Positions 1,641-42,622 of a stretch of DNA of 64,000 nucleotides are shown here, piece after piece (position 1 is the first letter of the stretch; every line of letters starts with the position of its first letter). Position numbers and translations under genes: made by a program. A model generated the notes under the pieces. It saw nothing but the letters and a program-made list of their open reading frames with translations. It had not been told where the DNA came from and ran no database searches. This DNA comes from a bacterium (lineage in GTDB: Bacteria; Patescibacteriota; Minisyncoccia; Phycocordibacterales; JBBTRF01), in the NCBI GenBank assembly GCA_037130265.1, contig JBAXTI010000001.1, positions 32,418-96,417 of the forward strand, read 5' to 3'.

Positions 1641-4175
1641 CTATTTTTTATCTCCGACTTTCGCTTCACCCCCACCCCCCTCCTTTTCCTTACCCTCCTT
1701 CTCCTTTTTATCAGACTCCTTTTCTTCACGTTTTTCACGACTCTCTTCTATTTTTTCAAGCTTCTTGTGAAGTTCGTTACGAGTTTTCTGTGATTTTAAT
1801 ATACGGCGCTTCTGGATCTGCAGCGAGTGTCTTGATTCTGGGGACAGTTTAGGGTCTGCAAGGTCATCTGCGATTTCTTCCAGAGTGACGACTTCTTCCT
1901 CGGCAAGCTTCTCACGTGCCTCCTTGTATCTCTTAAACATCTTTTCGAGCTGTTCGGCCTTCTTTTCCTTGTCAGCCATTGCCTCGATCTTCGACAATTC
2001 ATCAGCAGCTCCTGCGGATATATCGGCCTGAAGCGTTTTCCACTTCCTCCCCTCCTCAGTGCTCTCGTCATGTGCCTCAGGAAGCGCAGGGCTTAGTGCA
2101 GAATTTCTTGAGCTCTTGATCTCGGCACCAATGTTCTGCATATACGCGAGTATTCCCTTCTCCCAAGCCGCACCTTCTTCTGTCTTCTTCGCGTCCTTCT
2201 TCGTGTCCTCCTTGATTTGTTTATTAACAGCAGCAACTGCAGCAACATTCTCTTTGAAGCTTTCGCCAACACGGTATGGTTGGAAGTTCACCTTGGTGTT
2301 TTTGATGTTTTCCTTGGTCCAGGTTTTAGGATCAAGCGCCTTCAAATTAGTTGCGACATTCAAGGCTGGGGCGACAGGAGTGCCCGTCTTAATTGCCTCA
2401 ACATATCCCTGTTGTCGCTTTGGCTTTGCGTCGCCCTCCTTTTTCTCGAAGTCTTTCTTCTCACTTTCATATTGAGCCTCCCGCATTGCAAATGCCTCGG
2501 CACTTTCAAATGTTTTTCTGTACGGCTTCGGCTGGTTCCATTCAACAACCTTAGACATTCGTCCGTATCCTTCCTTGGCATTTTTCTCCGACTGTTTTAC
2601 GGCCCCATCAAACCCACCTTTTGCGCCACCAAAATCGGCACCAGCGACATTTTTAAGACTACTGTTCATGAGGCGACCAGCCAAAGGACTGACTGATTCG
2701 ATGTTCTTGGCAAAACCACTGTCCCGCGCTGCTGCGGCAGCTCTTCCGAGGGTATTCCTGCCAACCACGCCTTGCAGCTGCCCCTTCTTCTTTTTGAGGT
2801 AGTCGGTGAATACCTCCCCTCCTTCGATACCCACTTTACTTGCGCTCTTCAGAGCGTAGACCATCATTGCAATAACGATGATGAAGCGGAAAACGATGTT
2901 CACGGTCGTGCCGCTCAATGTTGAAAACAAACCAGAAAACCCGTCTGCCCCAGGTGCAACTGTCTGAAAACCAGGACTCTGCAGGATTTTGAAGGTGATC
3001 CACATCATGGCCATGTAGACGGGAGGAAATACGACATTTGCTTGAAGTTCTTTCCACCAATTGCTTTGATACTCGCCCAACTGTGGGAGGACAAAGCCAG
3101 CAAAAGCAATCGGTGAGCGAATCATGAGGAAAATGATGTCAATGAATCGCTTGAGGAAGAGCCAGCACGCCGCGACCATCACCACGATAGTGACACAGAT
3201 GAAAATGCTGCCCATGACAGTGGAAAGGATGTAGGCGAAGGTAGTCACTGGACTGTTAGCTATGTCGGTAACCACTCCACCGTATTTTGGCTTGTAAATA
3301 GTTTCAAGCTTCAGCGATTGCATAATACTGTTTGAGATGCCACCCGCACCGGATGTGCCGGTTGCAATCGAGCCGGGATTAATAGCCCCGGCCCCAACTC
3401 CAGGAAGCTGACTGTAGAATCCAATAGTGACAATGTTTGAAAGATCGAGCGCGACCTTGGTGATGAAAAGACTGAAGTTGATGAGTAGTGCCGCGAGTAC
3501 CAAGTTCCCTACCGTCTTTTTCCAATCGACTTTTTCCAAACCAAGAATAGTGCCTACTGCGGCATAGAGCAATGCAAAAATAAAGAAGAGGTTGATGAAG
3601 TCGCGGATCACTTTCCAGATGTCGGTGATGACGCCGAGACTGTCGATGGTGGTTTTGAGATTGACAATTGTCTTGTCGATGATGAAGTTGAAAACCAGGC
3701 CGACCAAGCCAAGTACCCAGCCGAACATCATCAGGATGGTGTTGCCAATGATTTTCATCGCGACAGGAATCCAGTTGTACGGATTGAGCATTCTCAAAGA
3801 AAAAACCGTGTCCTGATTTCCACTCCCCCCAGCCTGCTTCGGGTCGGTGTTATTCTGGCTCTGCGTGTTTGCTGAGGTGTTGCCGGAGCTCTGTTCAAGG
3901 GCGTCGGTGGCCGCATTTGGGTTGGCAGCCTGATTGATATTTGAAGTCTGCTCGAATGAATTGGTGTCCGCGTTTGGATCGGCTGGCGCTGTAGGCGGTG
4001 CGGTCTCGTTGGTACCCTCTTCCGGTGCGACATTTTGTGCCGGCGGAGTTACGGGAGGTGGCGCTGTCTCACTGCTACCTTCCTCAGCCGAAACGACATT
4101 TGCAAAGATTGAGCAAGTCAAAACCAGTACCATGAGTCCGGCCGCTATGTATTTGTACACAGAGTTGGTTTTCAT
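1641..4175 (-). CDS. large polytopic membrane protein, VirB6/TrbL-like candidate
   Basis: 844 aa. N-terminal signal peptide, then a low-complexity P/T/N-rich region, then about 8 hydrophobic helices, then a long K/E-rich hydrophilic C-terminal tail. This architecture and its operon position match VirB6/TrbL-type channel subunits. Domain call is by composition and topology only. Confidence 0.5.
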   Translation of the reverse strand: MKTNSVYKYIAAGLMVLVLTCSIFANVVSAEEGSSETAPPPVTPPAQNVAPEEGTNETAPPTAPADPNADTNSFEQTSNINQAANPNAATDALEQSSGNTSANTQSQNNTDPKQAGGSGNQDTVFSLRMLNPYNWIPVAMKIIGNTILMMFGWVLGLVGLVFNFIIDKTIVNLKTTIDSLGVITDIWKVIRDFINLFFIFALLYAAVGTILGLEKVDWKKTVGNLVLAALLINFSLFITKVALDLSNIVTIGFYSQLPGVGAGAINPGSIATGTSGAGGISNSIMQSLKLETIYKPKYGGVVTDIANSPVTTFAYILSTVMGSIFICVTIVVMVAACWLFLKRFIDIIFLMIRSPIAFAGFVLPQLGEYQSNWWKELQANVVFPPVYMAMMWITFKILQSPGFQTVAPGADGFSGLFSTLSGTTVNIVFRFIIVIAMMVYALKSASKVGIEGGEVFTDYLKKKKGQLQGVVGRNTLGRAAAAARDSGFAKNIESVSPLAGRLMNSSLKNVAGADFGGAKGGFDGAVKQSEKNAKEGYGRMSKVVEWNQPKPYRKTFESAEAFAMREAQYESEKKDFEKKEGDAKPKRQQGYVEAIKTGTPVAPALNVATNLKALDPKTWTKENIKNTKVNFQPYRVGESFKENVAAVAAVNKQIKEDTKKDAKKTEEGAAWEKGILAYMQNIGAEIKSSRNSALSPALPEAHDESTEEGRKWKTLQADISAGAADELSKIEAMADKEKKAEQLEKMFKRYKEAREKLAEEEVVTLEEIADDLADPKLSPESRHSLQIQKRRILKSQKTRNELHKKLEKIEESREKREEKESDKKEKEGKEKEGGGGEAKVGDKK

Positions 4176-20418: not shown

Positions 20419-21411
20419 ATGTCCGACCTCCATCAGCTCAAGCGCGAGTTTCTCGAGTACACCGAGATCGAAAAGGGTCGCAGTTTGAAAACGGTGGCCA
20501 ACTACGAGCGTTATTTGGATCGATTTTTGTCATACAGCAAGCTGAAGGATCCTGCGGGAGTGACGGACGATGTGTTGCGAGAATATCGATTGTGGCTCAA
20601 TCGACAGGCGGCAACGAAGACCCGCGACGGGCGCGTGGCCACAACGCTGAAAAAGAAGAGTCAGAACTACTATTTGATCGCGCTGAGGTCTTTTTTGAAA
20701 TATTGCGCCCGTCGCGGGGTGAAATCATTGGCTCCGGAGCGTATTGAGCTCGCCAAGGTGGCTGAACGTTCACTAGATTTGATCAGTGCCGACGAACTCA
20801 AACGATTGATGCATGCCGCCGATGATGCGGCCAACAAGGGCGACTTGAAAGGTTTGCGTGACAAGGCGATGATGGAGCTACTCTTCTCTACTGGTCTACG
20901 TGTGTCTGAGCTCTGTTCCCTCTCGCGCGATCTCGATCTCCGAGCAGACGAATTTTCTGTGCGAGGCAAGGGTGAGAAGGTGCGCGTCGTCTTTTTGTCC
21001 GAGTCGGCGCGCCAGGCGGTGAAGAAATACCTCGATAAGCGCGTCGACATGGACGACGCGCTATTTGTCCAGGCTGCAGGACCAATTGGCTTGAAAAAAT
21101 GGAAGGAAGATAAGGCTTCGAAGGACAAAAAGGCTGGCAAAAAGGATTTTGGCTCGAACACCACACGCCTCACTGCCCGCTCGGTGGAACGCATCGTCAA
21201 ACATTATGGAGTGAAGGCCGGTATTTCAAAAAAAGTTACTCCGCACGTAATTCGCCACTCCTTTGCCACCGACCTCCTCCAGAACGGTGCTGATCTTCGC
21301 TCTGTGCAGATGCTCCTCGGTCACGCCAACATCGGTACCACCCAGATCTACACACACGTCACAGACAAGCAGCTCCGCGAGGTACACAAGAAGTTTCATA
21401 ATCGGAAGTAA
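20419..21411 (+). CDS. xerC: tyrosine site-specific recombinase XerC/XerD family
   Basis: The C-terminal catalytic region (HVIRHSFATDLLQNGADLRSVQMLLGHANIGTTQIYTHV) and the N-terminal SAM-like domain are typical of Xer recombinases. Confidence 0.85.
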   Translation: MSDLHQLKREFLEYTEIEKGRSLKTVANYERYLDRFLSYSKLKDPAGVTDDVLREYRLWLNRQAATKTRDGRVATTLKKKSQNYYLIALRSFLKYCARRGVKSLAPERIELAKVAERSLDLISADELKRLMHAADDAANKGDLKGLRDKAMMELLFSTGLRVSELCSLSRDLDLRADEFSVRGKGEKVRVVFLSESARQAVKKYLDKRVDMDDALFVQAAGPIGLKKWKEDKASKDKKAGKKDFGSNTTRLTARSVERIVKHYGVKAGISKKVTPHVIRHSFATDLLQNGADLRSVQMLLGHANIGTTQIYTHVTDKQLREVHKKFHNRK

Positions 21412-21500
21412 TCTCCCGTAGCAGTGTAAATAGCGAGGAAGAGATAGGTGCGATATGCTTTGGGTACGTTATTACATTACATATATAATCCACGAACACT

Positions 21501-21983
21501 ATGGCAATTGAAGGAGAAGAAAGAAGTTTCGAACAGAGTGACGTGACGTCTCTCGATGCGGTCCGGCGAGAAGTTGCTGAAAAATTTGATAATAACCCAG
21601 AAGGCGCGTATCAAACGCTCAAGCGGTATCTTGATGCTGCGATAGATAAGCGAAGGGCTTCGCTCAAGCAAGGTCTTCTCTCAAACCCTGATATTTCCGC
21701 AGACGATTCCCTTGCCTTTGATGACTTGGTAAACGAGGCTCTGCGTCGCGCCTGTGCCGATGATGTGGAGATTGCTGGTATCACCGACGATATGCGTGCT
21801 ATTCGGAAAGCGCAGGCTGTAGAGGCTGCAAATGAGAAGCGAGCACGAAATGGTGAGGTGGAGGAGTCGAATCTGCAAGCGGCAATCGCAAAACTGCGCG
21901 ATTTTCGAGACAATCTTGAGAGGCTCGGGCTCGACACTGTTCAGGAGGATGCCGCGCTGGCTTCTTTGAAGCGGGTGAAATAA
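21501..21983 (+). CDS. hypothetical acidic helical protein
   Basis: 160 aa ORF downstream of xerC. No recognisable domain. Confidence 0.4.
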   Translation: MAIEGEERSFEQSDVTSLDAVRREVAEKFDNNPEGAYQTLKRYLDAAIDKRRASLKQGLLSNPDISADDSLAFDDLVNEALRRACADDVEIAGITDDMRAIRKAQAVEAANEKRARNGEVEESNLQAAIAKLRDFRDNLERLGLDTVQEDAALASLKRVK

Positions 21984-22007
21984 TTTCCGCAACAAAACGA
22001 TCTGCGA

Positions 22008-22037
22008 GAAAAAGGCGCACTAGTTGCGCTTTTTTCT
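22008..22037. terminator. bidirectional rho-independent terminator candidate
   Basis: AAAAAGGCGCACTAGTTGCGCTTTTTT, a GC stem flanked by an A-run and a T-run. Lies between convergent genes. Confidence 0.5.
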
Positions 22038-23357
22038 TTACTTTGCAATAACACTTCCCTCAAAAGCAGTTCCAATCATTGTCGAGCCACCGAACTTAAT
22101 TCCCCCCACAGAAGAGCTCCCTGCTGGCATCGTCACATTTATTGTGCAAGCATTACGACCAAGTCCTGTTCGGTTGACTACAGAACCTCCCCACGAGTTC
22201 ACCAAAGAACAGTCAAGGTCTTGTGCTCCATGATTGCTGGAGTTAGAAATGGTTCGTTTTGATGCAATAAAATTTGCTGAGGCTACTACCTGTGATGCAG
22301 GTGCTTTATCGAGTTTAATCCAGAAAGAATTTGAAATTATTTCCGAAGGGCGACTGCGTTGATATGTTGTACCACTCACATGTTGTTCCGTGTAATGCCC
22401 AGCTGATAAATTACCGTTCATTTGCTCAGCATCACTAGTGCCTGTATCTATCCCCACTTCTGGTTTGCTCGTGAGGAGTGTCTGTACTACTGCTCCCCCA
22501 TTGTTTACATCCATTTGATATAGTTTTCTCGTACCGCCGCTAAGAATGTCGTCCTTCACTGTTCCACCGACTGTTTCAAGGCACTGTATCTGTCTCCCGT
22601 TTGTGCGACTGACATAGGTGGTTTTGTATGATGAGGAGTAGTTGTAAGTGCCGTCATGGTCTGAATCATCAAGTTGAATTTGGACAAAAGTACTTATCGG
22701 CAAAAATGGTTTAATCACAATCCCTACACAAGTCGACGCAGGAAATGGGCCGTTTAGTCCTGGAGCAACCTTCGTGATGAGAACATTAAGTGGTCCGAAG
22801 ACGCCATTATTTGGTCCGCCGTCAAATTCTGCATAGTCGTACCTCATGTCATTTCCATAAGAAAACTTTTCCGGAAAGATCTTGCCGTTTATTATCTGGG
22901 GTAAAACGACAACACCCGTGCCTTTGTCATTGTAGCTGTAGCTCGTGAGGTTAAATGTTCCAGGACCAGTGATTGTGGGGCCAGCAGGCTGAACCTGTAC
23001 GGTGTCGGAGGTTGTCAGTTTAATACTACTCAAAGCGCAAATTGTGTTTGCTGGAGAATCAAACATCTGTGTCGGAGCACCTTTCCTCGCAGTAATAATT
23101 ACCGGAGAATTACCGCATGTTGTGCTGCCGAGTTTCCCGTCTTTTGCGTCTGAGTGATGATGCATTGTTCCAATAGGGATGTTGCCGCTAGATGCCATTG
23201 TTGACGCCTCTATTACCGCAGCCGGTTGACCCATTTCACCCACGGCCCCCTTATTGTTTGTCCACTGGAGTGTAACCAGTGTCAATATCCCAGCAACCAC
23301 AACGATGAGGCCTGTTTGCAAGAGAGACTTCCCAACCTTTTTGTTTTTTGGAATCAT
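22038..23357 (-). CDS. hypothetical membrane-anchored extracellular protein
   Basis: 439 aa with an N-terminal TM anchor and a G/T/S-rich beta-type composition. No recognisable domain. Confidence 0.5.
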   Translation of the reverse strand: MIPKNKKVGKSLLQTGLIVVVAGILTLVTLQWTNNKGAVGEMGQPAAVIEASTMASSGNIPIGTMHHHSDAKDGKLGSTTCGNSPVIITARKGAPTQMFDSPANTICALSSIKLTTSDTVQVQPAGPTITGPGTFNLTSYSYNDKGTGVVVLPQIINGKIFPEKFSYGNDMRYDYAEFDGGPNNGVFGPLNVLITKVAPGLNGPFPASTCVGIVIKPFLPISTFVQIQLDDSDHDGTYNYSSSYKTTYVSRTNGRQIQCLETVGGTVKDDILSGGTRKLYQMDVNNGGAVVQTLLTSKPEVGIDTGTSDAEQMNGNLSAGHYTEQHVSGTTYQRSRPSEIISNSFWIKLDKAPASQVVASANFIASKRTISNSSNHGAQDLDCSLVNSWGGSVVNRTGLGRNACTINVTMPAGSSSVGGIKFGGSTMIGTAFEGSVIAK

Positions 23358-23680
23358 GATGAGTATATATTAACATACAGATTAAGTGTCGACAGCTAAT
23401 GGATTAGTGGGATAATGTTCCAGACTTGTGACATCCGCTGTCTCTGCTGAGCTGAACGAAGTATGTTGTTTGGAGGTTGTCGACCTACTGTCGATGGCTG
23501 TTCGGTCCACTCCACTCCCCATCATTCGTTGAGGCTGATCGCATCGAGCATTCTTTATAGTAGATCCGCTACATCCCCACACCCCCCCCCGCCAATTTGG
23601 CCGGGGTGTTTTATATTCAAAAATCACCAGAGGCTCGGAAAGATTTTGCGTTCCTTCCTTTTTCCGCTACACTTCCCTAC

Positions 23681-24475
23681 ATGCGAATCATCTCCTGGAA
23701 TGTGAACGGTATCCGTGCGGTGCATAAAAAGGGACTATTTGTGCCGTTTATCGAAAAATATCAACCGGATATTCTTTGTTTGCAGGAAACGAAAGCACAG
23801 GAGGAGCAGTCTGATGTGGATTTGGCTGAATACAGTGAATATTGGAACTCTGCGGTGAAGAAGGGCTATTCTGGCACGGCAATTTTCACCAAGGAGAAGC
23901 CGCTGGCAGTGCTCAATGGCTTGCCCGAGGCTATTGTGAAGAAACACGGCCTCTGTGCGGATGAGTATGGCGACCCCTTGAGCGAAGGTCGTGTCATTGC
24001 TGCTGAGTATGCTGATTTTTATGTGGTCACTGTCTATACGCCGAATGCCAAGGATGATTTAAGTCGTGTGCCGTTGCGTCACAAGCAATGGGACCCCGCT
24101 TTTCTTTCATACTGCAAGCTGCTCGAGAATAAAAAGCCGGTGATCTTCTGCGGCGATCTCAACGTGGCTCATACTCCAGATGACCTCGCTCGTCCAAAGG
24201 AGAATGTTGGCCTGAAGGGTTTTACCGATGAGGAGCGCGCTGGTTTTCAGGCTTTTGTCGATGCTGGATTCGTCGACACCTTCCGCGTCTTTCACAAAGG
24301 CAACGGTTTCTATACTTGGTGGTCCCATTTTGCCAATGCCCGAGAGAGAAATGTTGGTTGGCGTATTGATTATGTGTTGATCTCCCCTGCCCTGCTGCCA
24401 CGTTTGAAAGTCGCCGAGATTCTTCCCGAAGTGATGGGGTCTGATCACTGTCCGGTGATGGTTGAGGTGGAATAG
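23681..24475 (+). CDS. xth: exodeoxyribonuclease III
   Basis: MRIISWNVNGIRA...CLQETK...GDLNVAH...WWS...SDHCPV, the ExoIII/APE family signature. Start taken at the internal ATG (23681). Confidence 0.85.
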   Translation: MRIISWNVNGIRAVHKKGLFVPFIEKYQPDILCLQETKAQEEQSDVDLAEYSEYWNSAVKKGYSGTAIFTKEKPLAVLNGLPEAIVKKHGLCADEYGDPLSEGRVIAAEYADFYVVTVYTPNAKDDLSRVPLRHKQWDPAFLSYCKLLENKKPVIFCGDLNVAHTPDDLARPKENVGLKGFTDEERAGFQAFVDAGFVDTFRVFHKGNGFYTWWSHFANARERNVGWRIDYVLISPALLPRLKVAEILPEVMGSDHCPVMVEVE

Positions 24476-24539
24476 CAAAAAGAAAAAGACGAAGTCTGCG
24501 GAGTTAGAAGGTATAAAAACAAAGCGGCGTCCGTGGGGC

Positions 24540-25145
24540 GCCGCTCTTCGTTTCGTATGGGCAAGAGGGGTCTAGTCTCTGCAGTGAATGGGTGCATGTG
24601 ATGGTTCTCGAGAACCTGCACGCAGCGCGAGTATCCACAAGGGACTTCGGGGGATGCAGGCCTTTTTTTTCGCGCCTACAGGCTTCTTTACGAGTTTTTT
24701 CGCCATAGTATCCTCCAGTGTTGACCGACTACGACTAATTGTACGCTGGATAAAGGACACAACAAGTAAGTTATCCACAGTATGTCCTTTACAGCATTTT
24801 ATAAAGGACATACAATCATCTCAGGCCAGAAATTCAATGGGACAAAACAGATTGGGAACCAAGGTCCGAATCTCACCCAGAACTGGCAAATGTTCTTCTA
24901 CAACTAACGAGTAACAACGCTCGTAATCTAGAAGACCAAACGGAACTCTAAGAGACATTTTGAAGTCGTCAATCGCAGCGCACAAGTATCCTTCTACAAC
25001 CTTTTTAAGTCCTTTAAGGACTAATTTAACCAAAGAAGGCGATCACTTTCGCAGCAGAATCAACTTCATTTTCAGTCTCAACACTGTTCGTAGCGGTCTT
25101 CGAACCGCATACAGTACTCTCGCTGTGGCGGTTTTTTTGTTTGTA
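24540..25145 (+). other. ~600 nt ORF-free structured region, candidate ncRNA locus; identity unresolved
   Basis: No convincing ORF. Nested perfect hairpin GTGCA...GGTTCTCGAGAACC...TGCAC at ~24592-24628. TAAAGGACA/TGTCCTTTA motif at 24751, 24783, 24802 and 25008. Terminator-like hairpins plus a T-run at ~25095-25145. Confidence 0.25.
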
Positions 25146-25185
25146 TAAAACACCAAAACGTTGATATTTGTACTCTCTTTTCCCT

Positions 25186-26658
25186 CTATTCAACCCAGTG
25201 TTTCTTGCGGATTTCAGCTACCACTTCTTCATCAGCCTGCATTTTGGAGTCTTTTCCGGCAGCACCGAGCTTTCGGAGGTCAGCTTCAGGCAAGAGAGCT
25301 AGCTTTTGAGCCTTTTCTTTCAGATATTCGGCTGTATTTAGCTGAGGATCCTCAAGCACTTCCTCTAGGAGGGCATGCAAAATGAAGCCGATCATTGGTC
25401 CTGGTACCAAACCGAGGTCTTTTATCAGAATTCCGCCGTTGATTTTCAACATTCCCACTGAAATTGGGTCGCGCAAGGCCTCTTCAATCATCGCGTGATA
25501 CTTTCGAAGGCGATACGGGTTCTCTTTTGGTCGTCCGGTGCCGATACGATCGCAGATTCGGACATTCATGAGGTCCCAAATATCCTCCTTCCCCACGTTA
25601 TTCACCATTCGACGCACGGCAGAAAGGCTAATCTGTTCGGTATCACTGAAAAACATGTGCCAACGCACGAGTTTAGTGACTTTTTCGATAATATTGTTGG
25701 AGTACTTGAGTCTTTCAAGGATTTTCTTGGTTACACGTGAACCAATCACCTCGTGGCCATAGAAGGTCCACTCCCCTTTTGGCCCCTTCCGGCGAGTCTC
25801 TGGCTTTGAAATGTCGTGAAACAGAGCCGCGATACGGATTTCAAGTGGCCATTTCTTGTCAGCAGCATGCTGCATTGATCGAAGAAGGTGTTCCCAGACG
25901 GTATAGGCATGGGCCTGGTTTTGCTCGATGCCGATGGCAAGCTCGAGTTCGGGGGTGATATATTTCAAAATACCCATGTTTTGAGCCATCACGATACCCT
26001 TCATTGGCTCCGCAGACATGAGGATTCGGTTGAACTCATCGCGAATTCGCTCCTGGGAGATGTTTTTCAGCATATGGACATCGGCACGGATCGCATTTTC
26101 AGTGTCCTTTACAATGCTAAAATCATGCTCAGTCGCAATTCGTACTGCGCGCAAGATACGAAGTGCATCTTCCTTGAAACGCTCGTCTGCGTTGCCTACA
26201 GCTCGAATGGTGCGAGCTTTTAGGTCGTCCTGTCCATTAAAGAGATCCACAATCTCCCCTTTTGAACTGATTGCAATCGCATTGAAGGTAAAATCACGGC
26301 GTCTGAGATCGTCTTCGATGTTTTTGCTGAAGGTCACGTGGTCCGGGCGGCGACCATCTGAATATTCTGCCTCGAGTCGGAATGGTGTCACCTCAACTAC
26401 CTTGAGCGTCTCGTCAATCCCATCTTCCTTGTTCACGACGCCCACTGTTCCAAAGGTATTTTCGTAAAAAGTGTCAGGAAAGAGTGCGATGATCTGCTCC
26501 GGAGTCGCATCAGTGGTCACGTCCCAATCCTTCGGTTTCTTTCCAATCAATAAGTCGCGCACGCAACCACCTACTAAGAAAGCCTTATAATTAGCCTTTT
26601 CTAGCGTCTCTGTGACACGTGAAACTTCTTTTGGAATCGAAAAGGAGGTGTTTTTCAT
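25186..26658 (-). CDS. cca: CCA-adding tRNA nucleotidyltransferase with HD domain
   Basis: Pol-beta nucleotidyltransferase head (GGCVRDLLIGKKPKDWD...RRDFTFNAIA) and a C-terminal HD domain (HDISKP). Confidence 0.85.
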   Translation of the reverse strand: MKNTSFSIPKEVSRVTETLEKANYKAFLVGGCVRDLLIGKKPKDWDVTTDATPEQIIALFPDTFYENTFGTVGVVNKEDGIDETLKVVEVTPFRLEAEYSDGRRPDHVTFSKNIEDDLRRRDFTFNAIAISSKGEIVDLFNGQDDLKARTIRAVGNADERFKEDALRILRAVRIATEHDFSIVKDTENAIRADVHMLKNISQERIRDEFNRILMSAEPMKGIVMAQNMGILKYITPELELAIGIEQNQAHAYTVWEHLLRSMQHAADKKWPLEIRIAALFHDISKPETRRKGPKGEWTFYGHEVIGSRVTKKILERLKYSNNIIEKVTKLVRWHMFFSDTEQISLSAVRRMVNNVGKEDIWDLMNVRICDRIGTGRPKENPYRLRKYHAMIEEALRDPISVGMLKINGGILIKDLGLVPGPMIGFILHALLEEVLEDPQLNTAEYLKEKAQKLALLPEADLRKLGAAGKDSKMQADEEVVAEIRKKHWVE

Positions 26659-27013: not shown

Positions 27014-27390
27014 CAAAGTAGAAGGTCTCGATGAGATGTGTTATGTGTCCAAAAGATGCTGTTCTGTCCTATATTCATAGCACCACGAAGAATCCTCGAA
27101 GTGTTGAGTTCGGTAATGTTTCCCAAGAAATAAGCAGGCGGATCTAGGGGTATTCAATCCCCATGATTGACAGAACTGGGGATAACTATGTGTACACTGT
27201 GTATAAAGGACAGCATTTTTATGGCTCAAAATCGTCCCTTACGCACTGTCTCACGGGTCCTTTTTCATTTAAATGGCTCTAATTAGCCCCATTCTAGATT
27301 TGATCCCGAATATCTGTAAAAGACGTAAAAGCAGCGCTATTTTAGAAAAAGGTTTCACGTGAAACAACCTATCTATGTGTAACAAAACCA

Positions 27391-40430: not shown

Positions 40431-40483
40431 ACTTTATGCGCTGAATTATTTATTCGTCAATTATTATGTATCATTCCCACCCC

Positions 40484-42622
40484 ATGTCATCACTCTTCAG
40501 CAAAAAAATCCTCAGCTTTTTTATGGCAGCAGCAATGCTTCCGTTTTTTGCTCATGGGACGACGACTATATTGGCCAATGCATACTATGCGACAGGTGTT
40601 CAGCCTCATGCTGATGCAAGTATTTCTCAGATTGCATCGGCACAGGCTGCGGCTGTCTCATCTTCTCTCGCAGTTTGCCCAATCGGGACCATGCCTACAG
40701 GCTCTGCAGTCGTCACTTCGACGAATGAAGATTTCGCCGGCGTGTGGGGTGTGTTTGCTCCGGGTCGCGGCAATGTAAACGCTGCATCCAAAGGAGGCTC
40801 GAATGATTGGGGGATCACTCTCAGTGTTATTGCGCCGGGCACAAAAAATGTTAGCGCCGTGCGCCTCGACCATAGTTATGGCAATGAACGTTGGTCGACC
40901 AATAATCCGAGCGAATACCCACTTGTTGTGTACGAGGCTGACAAAAAGTTGGTGAATAAGAGCGCTGACACGTTCCTTCTTTGGGCAGGAACCCACACGT
41001 TTAAGATCTATGCTCAGTCCGAAAGTCAAAGTTTTGCCGGAGCGAAATTGACATTCATTTTTGATGACAATTCCACAGTGGCGTTTGATGTACCAGCTGT
41101 CCCAGTTGCTCCAGTTAAGCCTGTTGTGGAAATAAGCGTCGCTTCTTCCTCATCACGAACGGTGACTGGGGGCAGTGTCCAGGCGTTGATTTCTTCATAC
41201 ACAGTAGACACCTCAAAGTCGACATCGCCAGAAGGTGTTCGAATGAGTAATCTCGCTATAAACTACAAAACAAATTCAATTGCTCGGCCGAGTGACCTCA
41301 CAAGTTGTGGTCTCTATGACGGCAGTGTTGCTCTCAATAACGGTGCAAATATTCTCAATCCTATAAGCGCAAACGGTGCTTCCACGACAATCTCATTTAA
41401 TCAACCCATCGTGATTCCACGCGGTGTCATTAAGACATTTGCACTTAAATGTAATGTATCATCGAGTGCGCAAGCTGGCGCTACCTATGCATTCGATTTG
41501 GCGAGTCCCGCAACCACAGGTCTCACCAGTGTAACTTCTTCACAGAACGTGTTTCCTGCTCAGCCAAATAACACCAGCCAGCCTGTGGCTGTTGGCGTAA
41601 CCACCCTCTCTGTCTCATCCGATGCTTCAGCCCCAGCACTTAAGAATGTCTCAGCTGGTTCTGCTGGTGTAGTCCTCAATGCTTTGAAGGTTTCAGCTGT
41701 CGGTGAAGCTATTCGCCTCGACAGAATCGGACTAAAGCTCACATCCGGCAACTCAGGCAACCTCTCTGCTGTGACTATTTGGGACGGCGCCACTCAGGTG
41801 GGGCAAATGATGTTTGTTGGTTCCAATACCACAGGTACAACATCTCTATCCACCCCTGTGATTATTCCTAAAAATAGCGACAAGGTTCTTGTTGTGAAGG
41901 CGGATATTTCATCTGTTCTCGTTCCTGCAAACACAAGTGATTTGGTGCGAGTGGATTACAACGGTGCCGATGGTGCCCGTGGTGTCGGTGTAGATTCTGG
42001 CGTAACTCTCTACACTATCGGAACATTTACGAATTCCACAGGAATTCGCGTGTTTCAGTCGTTGCCTTCGGTGACTATTGATTCACTTAGTTCATCAGGT
42101 GTTTCAGATGGCAAGTTGCTGCGATTTAAGGTCACCGCAAGTGCAGGTGGTCCAATCAGCTTGGCCAAGGTCGGCCTTGTCGTAAGCGCTACTTCAGGTG
42201 TCACGGTCTATGGCATGAATATCTACGGATATCAGGATGCGTCCTACACTCAGCCTGTTTCCACAGCATCGGGCAATGGAGCTCTCGCACTCAGCACTAC
42301 TACGGTGAGTGGCAGTAGTCCTGTGAGCGTCATTGTCGCTGCGACCGGCACATCAACGGCGCTACTTATTCCGGCGGGAACTACCCGATACTTTGAGGTG
42401 CGTGCACTCGCTATTCTTGGTATAACAACCGGATCTTCGATAACGACCACTTTGGTAGGTGATTCCACCTATACCGTAGGTTTGAGCAGCGGAGCTTTTG
42501 TATGGTCACCATTCGGACGTGTCTCACAGGTACCTCTCAATGCAAATGATTGGGTGAACGGCGTCGGTGTCGTCGTTGGTCAAAATGGCAGCAATCAATT
42601 GGTTCAGATGAGGGCAATGTAA
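40484..42622 (+). CDS. large secreted S/T-rich beta-type protein (possible pilus-associated or surface adhesin)
   Basis: Signal peptide (MSSLFSKKILSFFMAAAMLPFFAHG). ~700 aa of repetitive S/T/G/V-rich sequence. Immediately upstream of pilB-pilC. Confidence 0.55.
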   Translation: MSSLFSKKILSFFMAAAMLPFFAHGTTTILANAYYATGVQPHADASISQIASAQAAAVSSSLAVCPIGTMPTGSAVVTSTNEDFAGVWGVFAPGRGNVNAASKGGSNDWGITLSVIAPGTKNVSAVRLDHSYGNERWSTNNPSEYPLVVYEADKKLVNKSADTFLLWAGTHTFKIYAQSESQSFAGAKLTFIFDDNSTVAFDVPAVPVAPVKPVVEISVASSSSRTVTGGSVQALISSYTVDTSKSTSPEGVRMSNLAINYKTNSIARPSDLTSCGLYDGSVALNNGANILNPISANGASTTISFNQPIVIPRGVIKTFALKCNVSSSAQAGATYAFDLASPATTGLTSVTSSQNVFPAQPNNTSQPVAVGVTTLSVSSDASAPALKNVSAGSAGVVLNALKVSAVGEAIRLDRIGLKLTSGNSGNLSAVTIWDGATQVGQMMFVGSNTTGTTSLSTPVIIPKNSDKVLVVKADISSVLVPANTSDLVRVDYNGADGARGVGVDSGVTLYTIGTFTNSTGIRVFQSLPSVTIDSLSSSGVSDGKLLRFKVTASAGGPISLAKVGLVVSATSGVTVYGMNIYGYQDASYTQPVSTASGNGALALSTTTVSGSSPVSVIVAATGTSTALLIPAGTTRYFEVRALAILGITTGSSITTTLVGDSTYTVGLSSGAFVWSPFGRVSQVPLNANDWVNGVGVVVGQNGSNQLVQMRAM

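Follow-up and report, generated by a model that had tools for sequence, protein, structure and literature searches.

We analysed a 710-base gap between two genes in a 64,000-nucleotide stretch of contig JBAXTI010000001.1 from a bacterium of the Patescibacteriota; this whole stretch is called the window. The gap (24476-25185) lies between xth and cca. Its edges are the stop of an Exo_endo_phos (xth-like) gene at 24475 and the stop of the convergent gene for a CCA-adding enzyme at 25186. Gene callers called no gene within it. The initial annotation had described the gap as free of open reading frames (ORFs), which is not strictly so: the minus strand has one of 44 codons (24572-24706), preceded by the Shine-Dalgarno sequence GGAGGA. 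The right half of the gap holds a conserved promoter that appears to drive a structured non-coding RNA with its own terminator. The features of this unit are as follows, in window positions (L001 and L122 are two related loci):

24738-24816: divergent promoter block, a sigma-70-type promoter embedded in three TGTCCTTTA half-sites, with a perfect DnaA-box sequence ahead
24751-24759, plus strand: half-site A, TAAAGGACA; homologous promoters repeatedly carry inverted half-sites further upstream, at -27 to -40 counted from the -35 element
24771-24779, plus strand: perfect match to the DnaA-box consensus, TTATCCACA, 17 bp upstream of the -35 hexamer
24783-24791, minus strand: half-site B, reading TGTCCTTTA on the plus strand and overlapping the -35 hexamer
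24788-24816, plus strand: predicted sigma-70-type promoter TTTACA-17-TACAAT (-35 at 24788-24793, -10 at 24811-24816), with 10 of 12 matches in the promoter scan
24802-24810, plus strand: half-site C, TAAAGGACA, abutting the -10 hexamer and forming an inverted repeat with half-site B
24823-25138, plus strand: putative non-coding RNA gene of ~316 nt, predicted fold -88.8 kcal/mol (z = -4.8, 0 of 100 shuffles as stable)
24826-24887, plus strand: P1, 5' hairpin GCCAG...CUGGC with nested helices, in the boxB position; one pair is swapped from C-G to G-C
24892-24904, plus strand: boxA-like element GUUCUUCUACAAC, unpaired in the minimum-free-energy and consensus folds
24907-24924, plus strand: P2, small hairpin ACGAG-UAACAACG-CUCGU; the stem is kept by double changes in L122 (CAGGC/GCCUG)
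24928-24937, plus strand: 5' strand of P3, the long-range helix, CUAGAAGACC; the boxA segment is complementary to it as well (inverted repeat I6)
25008-25022, plus strand: apical hairpin of the rod, palindrome AGTCCTTTAAGGACT, kept in L001 and L122
25095-25103, plus strand: 3' strand of P3, GGUCUUCGA, with a second boxA-like sequence, GUUCGUA, just ahead (25086-25092)
25102-25138, plus strand: intrinsic terminator, 13-bp bulged stem GAACCGC.UACAGU / GCUGUG GCGGUUU, then U7

Judged by sequence, the promoter block is the most conserved non-coding part of the locus. When the gap was compared by BLAST with 80 loci, conservation past the closest relative was limited to ~24750-24825, and the block was present in 49 of the 80, which had been retrieved through the cca protein alone. 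The aligned BLAST matches share an architecture that reads, in order, an optional TAAAGGACA; aGTTATCCACAg; 2-5 nt; TGTCCTTTACA; a direct TGTCYTTTA or else an inverted TAAAGGACA placed 10 nt further on; TAnAAT; 5-8 nt; and CAG. A pattern scan found the full architecture in nearly all of at least 120 metagenome contigs among the matches listed. Of 120 homologous promoters, 115 have a half-site that overlaps the -35 element at position -5. A further copy follows as a direct repeat at +6 to +8 in 72 of the 120 and in inverted form at +13/14 in 21; the window belongs to the inverted type. A TAnnnT -10 hexamer stands at matching spacing in 74. The DnaA-box sequence occurs with at most one mismatch in 49 of the 80 cca-anchored loci and at -17/-18 in 109 of the 120 promoters, its presence having been part of the search pattern for the metagenome loci. 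Hexamers at -35 and -10 with a spacing of 16-18 bp are kept among the homologs, as in a sigma-70-type promoter, and repeated half-sites at fixed positions overlap this core promoter, as in an operator. The start site would be expected at ~24823/24824. The initial annotation had placed a -10 element at TATAAAGGACA (24800); a better candidate is TACAAT (24811-24816), together with TTTACA as the -35 hexamer.

The half-sites themselves had been noticed before as a possible operator array, and both the copies (two of TAAAGGACA at 24751-24759 and 24802-24810, and the inverse TGTCCTTTA at 24783-24791) and their operator-like arrangement within the promoter bore scrutiny. The inverted repeat I1 is in fact longer than noted, with 12-nt perfect arms (GTATGTCCTTTA / TAAAGGACATAC) and 10 nt between them. 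A motif search found the 9-mer enriched in the window: five exact copies versus 0.36 expected, a number reached by 0 of 100 shuffles, with three of the five within 60 bp. The other two lie within cca and at a second composite site (27204). Even with one mismatch allowed, the half-site was absent from 22.5 kb of the same contig (L203) reaching the dnaA region, the first 12.5 kb of which overlaps the window. Across the cca loci we counted 283 copies in 617 kb versus ~5 expected (~60-fold enriched), clustered at three places: downstream of cca, ~500 bp upstream of the gene and within its coding sequence. The half-site is a specific element and not a general promoter element.

Two of these places stand apart from the promoter. 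The second composite site (27165-27212, minus strand) reads TGTCCTTTA-TACACAGTGTACACA-TAGTTATCCCCAG, a half-site followed by three tandem DnaA-box-like 9-mers at ~10-11-bp spacing. AT-rich sequence follows and RGCCAT(A/T)(A/T)(A/T) repeats flank it. Many related loci keep such a site ~500 bp upstream of cca, facing the 3' end of a tRNA gene. The site could represent a cluster of DnaA boxes or a further regulated promoter; judged by GC skew, it is not the origin. Within the cca coding sequence, an exact TAAAGGACA at 26103-26111 (minus strand) falls in codons for L-K-D-K, and related cca genes carry two to three half-site copies at the equivalent place, ~400 nt into the gene. This may reflect the coincidence of a conserved peptide motif with codon usage; alternatively, the same regulator may bind within the gene.

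The sequence downstream of the promoter is conserved like a gene. Its identity to L001 and L122 is 75-78%, close to that of cca DNA (79%), whereas the spacer across the promoter reaches 37% and is unalignable. In a three-way alignment of the window, L001 and L122, 84 predicted pairs are kept, six of them through double (compensatory) changes. The same alignment contains several 1-2-nt indels, so that no reading frame is conserved in the RNA region. In the predicted fold, P3 pairs 24928-24937 with 25095-25103 and closes a rod of ~175 nt, at whose apex sits the palindrome AGTCCTT-T-AAGGACT (AGTCCTTTAAGGACT, 25008-25022) that the initial annotation had pointed out. The hairpin and T-run that it had seen at ~25095-25145 are likewise real: the terminator stem spans 25102-25134 and T7 spans 25132-25138, so the predicted RNA ends 48 bp short of the convergent cca. 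A simple terminator scan missed this stem because of a 1-nt bulge. The ~320-nt plus-strand RNA suggested earlier thus takes shape as a conserved, structured putative transcript unit of ~316 nt, with its own terminator downstream of the promoter.

Between P1 and P2 lies the boxA-like element. The published boxA consensus, derived for Nus-factor targets, is GYTCTTTAANA (PMC5725501), and the window element (GTTCTTCTACAAC, 24892-24904) matches at six of seven core positions. The RNA also contains an 18-nt direct repeat (D1), 24887-24904 (CAAATGTTCTTCTACAAC) and 24983-25000 (CAAGTATCCTTCTACAAC), 83% identical; a diverged second copy of the boxA segment is thus present on the rod's 5' strand.

By promoter, synteny and architecture, the unit is one member of a Paceibacteria-wide family of structured RNAs, 200-480 nt in size, next to cca and nearby tRNA genes. 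The cca protein has relatives of 55-86% identity in 80 genomes, mainly labelled Parcubacteria, Paceibacterota or Patescibacteria, and many of the third-party annotation records among them are labelled "uncultured Candidatus Saccharibacteria". These relatives place the window in a Paceibacteria genome of the Candidate Phyla Radiation. A promoter and an RNA of similar build lie beside cca in 49 of the 80 related genomes and in most of at least 120 metagenome contigs listed. Using an automated terminator call, which found terminators in 128 of 154 homologous units, we extracted 128 promoter-to-terminator units; related sequences inflate some of the family counts. As extracted in this way, the RNAs are ~130-865 nt long (median 279; 10th-90th percentile 215-466 nt), and their internal folds vary by subfamily, from rods to two-hairpin cores and nested terminal domains. 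The most recurrent 7-mer was GTTCTTT (87 of 128), followed by GCGGTTT of the terminator (42 of 128). GYTCYTT, which fits the published boxA core, occurs on the sense strand of 104 of the 128 RNAs versus 11 on the antisense strand. It usually lies 3' of the 5' hairpin, at a distance of 15-119 nt, and an A-rich stretch comes after it; one subfamily has no 5' hairpin and carries two tandem boxA-like copies in its place.

The long-range helix is also a property of the family. We compared the pairing of the segment after boxA with the segment before the terminator to that obtained with partners swapped between RNAs. Own partners paired at -22.5 kcal/mol versus -18.0 kcal/mol for swapped ones (Wilcoxon p = 5e-8), and the native partner beat at least 90% of swaps in 40% of the RNAs. 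Thirteen sequences make up the largest subfamily that could be aligned; of its 25 consensus pairs, 13 show covariation, and it has long single-stranded blocks without any variation. In 28 sampled members the fold was far more stable than that of shuffled sequence (mean z-score -4.65, 86% below -2).

The orientation of the RNA relative to cca differs between genomes. In about a quarter of loci (L064, L058, L049, L073, L078, L036) the whole module of promoter, RNA and terminator is flipped with respect to cca; beginning 10-60 bp past the cca stop, it reads away from the gene. These modules have the longest RNAs (370-480 nt), with CCGAGG in the 5' hairpin. As a general 5'-hairpin motif CCGAGG was rejected, since only ~15% of members have it.

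The layout most closely resembles that of a ribosomal RNA (rRNA) operon leader. Shared are a strong promoter, a hairpin, a single-stranded boxA of the GYUCUUU type, a distant pairing strand and a terminator; boxB/boxA with a leader-trailer helix is the design of pre-rRNA (PMC10250234). Here too a boxA-like element is on the sense strand and predicted to be unpaired behind a 5' hairpin, and a predicted leader-trailer helix follows. Unlike in rRNA operons, the enclosed domain is a lineage-specific RNA of 100-300 nt and not 16S or 23S rRNA, no boxC could be made out, and the window has another boxA-like sequence within the helix, beside the trailer strand. No rRNA gene was enclosed or preceded: Rfam found no rRNA in the window and a probe search found none in the window or in 200 related loci, nor was there an rRNA operon in these loci to own the promoter, though rRNA-bearing contigs are rare in assemblies. 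Leaders of clustered regularly interspaced short palindromic repeat (CRISPR) arrays carry boxA elements as well. Outside rRNA, boxA is further known from the suhB 5' untranslated region and other Nus targets (PMC5725501). Such elements share with the unit described here a position close to the transcript's 5' end, the transcript being one that is not translated or must be protected from Rho. Those elements regulate downstream genes or arrays in cis, whereas the present unit stops at its own terminator and serves no downstream gene.

The promoter has two further counterparts. The sequence TTATCCACA is a textbook DnaA box. Its perfect copy just upstream of the promoter, together with the three-box cluster nearby, within ~35 kb of dnaA, recalls DnaA-regulated promoters and box clusters. 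Unlike in these, the candidate site here is always coupled to a second motif, TGTCCTTTA. Pho-box-type tandem operators are sites of OmpR/PhoB-family regulators. Most homologs resemble them in carrying two TGTC-containing direct repeats, 11-12 bp apart, that overlap the -35 region; in the window, by contrast, inversion of the second copy creates a 12-nt palindrome around a spacer of 10 nt. We take this likeness as a lead only.

From these observations we propose, with somewhat more confidence than doubt, that a tightly controlled promoter drives a new family of structured RNA made in the style of rRNA, by regulated initiation followed by Nus/boxA-assisted transcription and folding. The steps are what we infer from the sequence, as regards transcription, the binding of a transcription factor, of DnaA and of Nus factors, and any cellular role. 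Initiation would most likely be gated by a sequence-specific protein on the 9-bp half-site TGTCCTTTA, whose three copies lie over the upstream region, over the -35 element and at the edge of the -10 element. A part for DnaA, bound to TTATCCACA 17 bp upstream of the -35 hexamer, is also possible. The sigma-70-type promoter would then drive a stand-alone RNA of ~316 nt. As the RNA emerges, the 5' hairpin would form first and the boxA-like sequence would be exposed next, which is the order of an rRNA leader. NusB/NusE (S10) with NusA and NusG could load on boxA. The modified polymerase would resist Rho on this untranslated RNA, and the leader would be kept near the exit channel until the trailer emerges, which would favour P3. 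Rho resistance and the holding of the leader have been proposed for the rRNA antitermination complex and for leader-trailer helices (PMC4807359; PMC10250234). The leader at 24928-24937 would pair with the trailer at 25095-25103, some 160 nt on, to close the ~175-nt rod before the intrinsic terminator ends the RNA. Since the boxA segment is complementary to the leader strand of P3, factor binding could in addition steer folding off a local trap.

Among the other explanations, the one that holds up best, though we consider it unlikely, is that the locus acts as DNA only. The TGTCCTTTA copies and the DnaA box would then form a protein-binding array that controls the small ORF as its operator, titrates or reactivates DnaA, or marks the region near the origin in some other way, and the downstream 320 bp would have no function as RNA. 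Across distant genomes it is indeed the promoter/operator block and not the transcript that is conserved most strongly. The second composite site with its three tandem DnaA-like boxes, 2.4 kb off at 27165-27212, is conserved too, and the locus is just ~32 kb from dnaA. Against this stands a canonical -35/-10 pair with a conserved CAG start region that is aimed into these 320 bp, which are conserved like a coding gene while the spacer opposite is unalignable. An array of binding sites also leaves the compensatory changes, the strand-specific boxA-like motif and the terminator in nearly every homolog without explanation.

An origin of replication (oriC) at the locus was rejected. Cumulative GC skew rises overall over the window with small local dips, has its minimum at the left end and does not turn at the locus. 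No dnaA was found within the window; rpmH-rnpA-yidC and dnaA lie 7-9 kb left of its start and ~32 kb from the RNA locus, which itself has one perfect and one 8-of-9 DnaA box. In L203 the yidC-rnpA-rpmH cluster (21186-22300) is divergent from dnaA. In the region upstream of dnaA, a TATAAT is closely preceded by two tandem DnaA boxes, both imperfect (TTGTCCACA, TTATCAACA), and the intergenic region between yidC-rnpA-rpmH and dnaA has a long perfect inverted repeat, CAGACACACAAATGGAGGAG...CTCCTCCATTTGTGTGTCTG. Since only imperfect boxes lie upstream of dnaA, TTATCCACA at the RNA locus would be a high-affinity site, if DnaA binds.

Less probable again is a highly divergent version of a known housekeeping RNA: 6S RNA, signal recognition particle (SRP) RNA, RNase P RNA or transfer-messenger RNA (tmRNA). 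The rod has about the length of 6S RNA, and 6S RNAs are poorly conserved in sequence. In addition, the contig encodes RnpA, so that the genome must have an RNase P RNA. However, at gathering threshold Rfam 15 returned only transfer RNAs (tRNAs) in the window and in 17 related loci, and lax searches gave only chance matches (E up to 10 in 24300-25400 and E up to 1 in 16 further loci). ARAGORN detected no tmRNA in the window; tmRNA, which would have a tRNA-like domain and a tag frame, was rejected on both searches. RNase P RNA and SRP RNA were rejected because no covariance model matched in the window or related loci, and the universal motifs of either were not seen in the sequence. The 6S family, which shares with the unit the build of a stand-alone gene for an abundant RNA and a rod core of ~175 nt, was rejected for want of a covariance-model match and of a large central bubble. 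In the window subfamily the consensus fold consists largely of helices, interrupted by small loops and a single 12/12 internal loop at the apex, and other subfamilies are branched, with multi-hairpin cores instead of rods. Of the two options left by the initial annotation, a divergent tmRNA, RNase P RNA or SRP RNA finds no support, and a novel RNA is the surviving reading. The absence of tmRNA and RNase P RNA from the window, which had also been remarked on, is uninformative for 64 kb; since RnpA is encoded next to dnaA (with L34), the genome should have a canonical RNase P RNA at some other place. The literature held nothing relevant on the half-site motif, on the RNA or on RNase P of the Candidate Phyla Radiation (CPR), and almost no described non-coding RNAs of CPR/Patescibacteria beyond the universal ones.

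The layout of hairpin, boxA and leader-trailer helix, with no rRNA gene enclosed, would also suit the decaying remains of an rRNA operon that was lost or moved elsewhere, of which promoter, leader and trailer are left without present function. We regard this as very improbable. The unit is retained in well over 100 genomes and contigs whose cca proteins are only 55-67% identical, although neutral spacer at the locus is already unalignable between the closest relatives, and stems stay paired through double substitutions, which is strong evidence of purifying selection. We give next to no credence to small proteins in place of an RNA in the right half, where the mechanical ORFs on offer (24821-25033, minus strand, 70 amino acids; 24960-25148, plus strand, 62 amino acids; 25026-25193, minus strand, 55 amino acids) all start with TTG and have no Pfam match, 1- and 2-nt indels in the three-way alignment break every frame, and the sole short frame in the window that begins with ATG has no such start codon in L001 and L122. 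Each of the four explanations is less likely than the regulated, rRNA-style RNA family.

Several points weigh against that proposal nonetheless. Transcription, the strand and the RNA ends are themselves read from the sequence. The window boxA deviates at the seventh core position (GUUCUUC versus GYUCUUU), and the consensus may not be this lineage's own rRNA boxA. In the family, GTTCTTT is sometimes found in tandem, 10-11 nt apart, which is compatible with a DNA operator. The folding z-scores include the terminator hairpin, and the antisense strand of the sampled members scores highly as well (-3.2). Searches by nhmmer with the window RNA and then with a three-sequence profile matched only L001 and L122; since only these align, kinship with the other subfamilies rests on promoter, synteny and architecture. 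Wide variation in length and internal fold means that a single conserved molecular function is not guaranteed. Finally, no cognate transcription factor for the half-site was identified.

The left half of the gap contains a second, leftward unit:

24523-24545, both strands: bidirectional terminator-like hairpin, AGCGGCGTCC-GTG-GGGCGCCGCT, picked by the terminator scan
24572-24706, minus strand: small ORF of 44 codons (MAKKLVKKPVGAKKKACIPRSPLWILALRAGSREPSHAPIHCRD), with a GGAGGA Shine-Dalgarno sequence at 24716-24711
24592-24621: nested hairpin GTGCA (24592-96)-tgtgat-GGTTCTCGAGAACC (24603-16)-TGCAC (24617-21), inverted repeat I2
24738-24765, minus strand: putative leftward promoter for the small ORF, -35 TTGTTG (24765-24760), 16-nt spacer, -10 TACAAT (24743-24738)

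The small ORF was not called by gene callers and has no Pfam match. L122 has a homologous ORF of 42 codons in the same place (59% amino acid identity, tblastn E 2e-10), and 12 of 28 changed codons are synonymous. It is absent from L001, where an unrelated ORF occupies the corresponding position. The ORF is likely a lineage-restricted coding gene. The nested hairpin described in the initial annotation is present; it ends at 24621 and not at 24628, and it sits within this ORF. Its GGTTC/GAACC arms are retained in L122 as GGTTCAAAGGAACC, and the region is unalignable in L001. Downstream of xth, on the plus strand, the terminator-like hairpin at 24523-24545 runs into a T-rich tail; downstream of the small ORF, on the minus strand, it runs into TTTGTTTTT. 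The hairpin is identical in L001 and has a near-identical copy in L122. The leftward promoter, which fell under the scan threshold because its -35 hexamer is weak, has a -10 block (TAATTGTACGC) that is kept in L001 and reads TACACT in L122, and it would drive the small ORF. The leftward unit would thus probably run from a weak promoter through the 44-codon ORF to the bidirectional terminator. As half-site A lies within the spacer of this promoter, both divergent units may share a regulator.

Genes for RNA metabolism are abundant nearby: four tRNA genes, PNPase-like, NYN-domain, RNase Y and YraN genes, and, also encoded in the window, an RNA methyltransferase-domain protein and NusA. The mechanical ORF of xth (23597-24475) has 292 amino acids from a TTG start, and gene callers give 264; the true start probably lies downstream of 23597. 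Three large ORFs have no Pfam match: 1641-4175 (minus strand, 844 amino acids), 40466-42622 (plus strand, 718 amino acids) and 22038-23357 (minus strand, 439 amino acids). On the source contig, which spans 99.7 kb, the first of these lies within a run of genes including PrgI-like, TraC-like and TraG/VirB4-like ATPase genes, which suggests a type IV secretion or conjugation-like cluster near the origin. From ~59527 to past 64000 (plus strand) there is a seemingly ORF-free stretch with a GC content of 52-58%. As a larger gap, this 3.8-kb stretch (59.5-63.3 kb) was rejected, since it appears to be one giant ORF, which is missing from the ORF listing because it runs past the window end. Its N-terminus is signal-peptide-like, and it is probably a surface protein.

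As to the role of the proposed RNA family, our guess is a stable housekeeping RNA, made and folded in the manner of rRNA and co-regulated with growth or replication. More tentatively, and as a possibility that we rate below even, it could be an undescribed class of Paceibacteria RNA that uses the rRNA machinery of boxA/Nus and leader-trailer helix, with a promoter that integrates DnaA and a dedicated TGTCCTTTA regulator: a "mini pre-rRNA" linking replication status with ribosome or RNA-processing capacity. Such an RNA might act as a decoy or scaffold, with Nus factors, RNase III or ribosome-assembly factors as possible partners. The locus defines a new DNA motif, TGTCCTTTA, that is coupled to a DnaA box, and the unit would add a new family to annotation of the Rfam type and allow a better reading of "empty" intergenic gaps in metagenome-assembled genomes. 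If the proposal is true, boxA/Nus-assisted transcription and leader-trailer folding would extend from rRNA to another stable RNA. Genomes of the CPR/Patescibacteria are tiny and have few known regulators, and the RNA unit would offer a testable handle on regulation in these mostly uncultured organisms.

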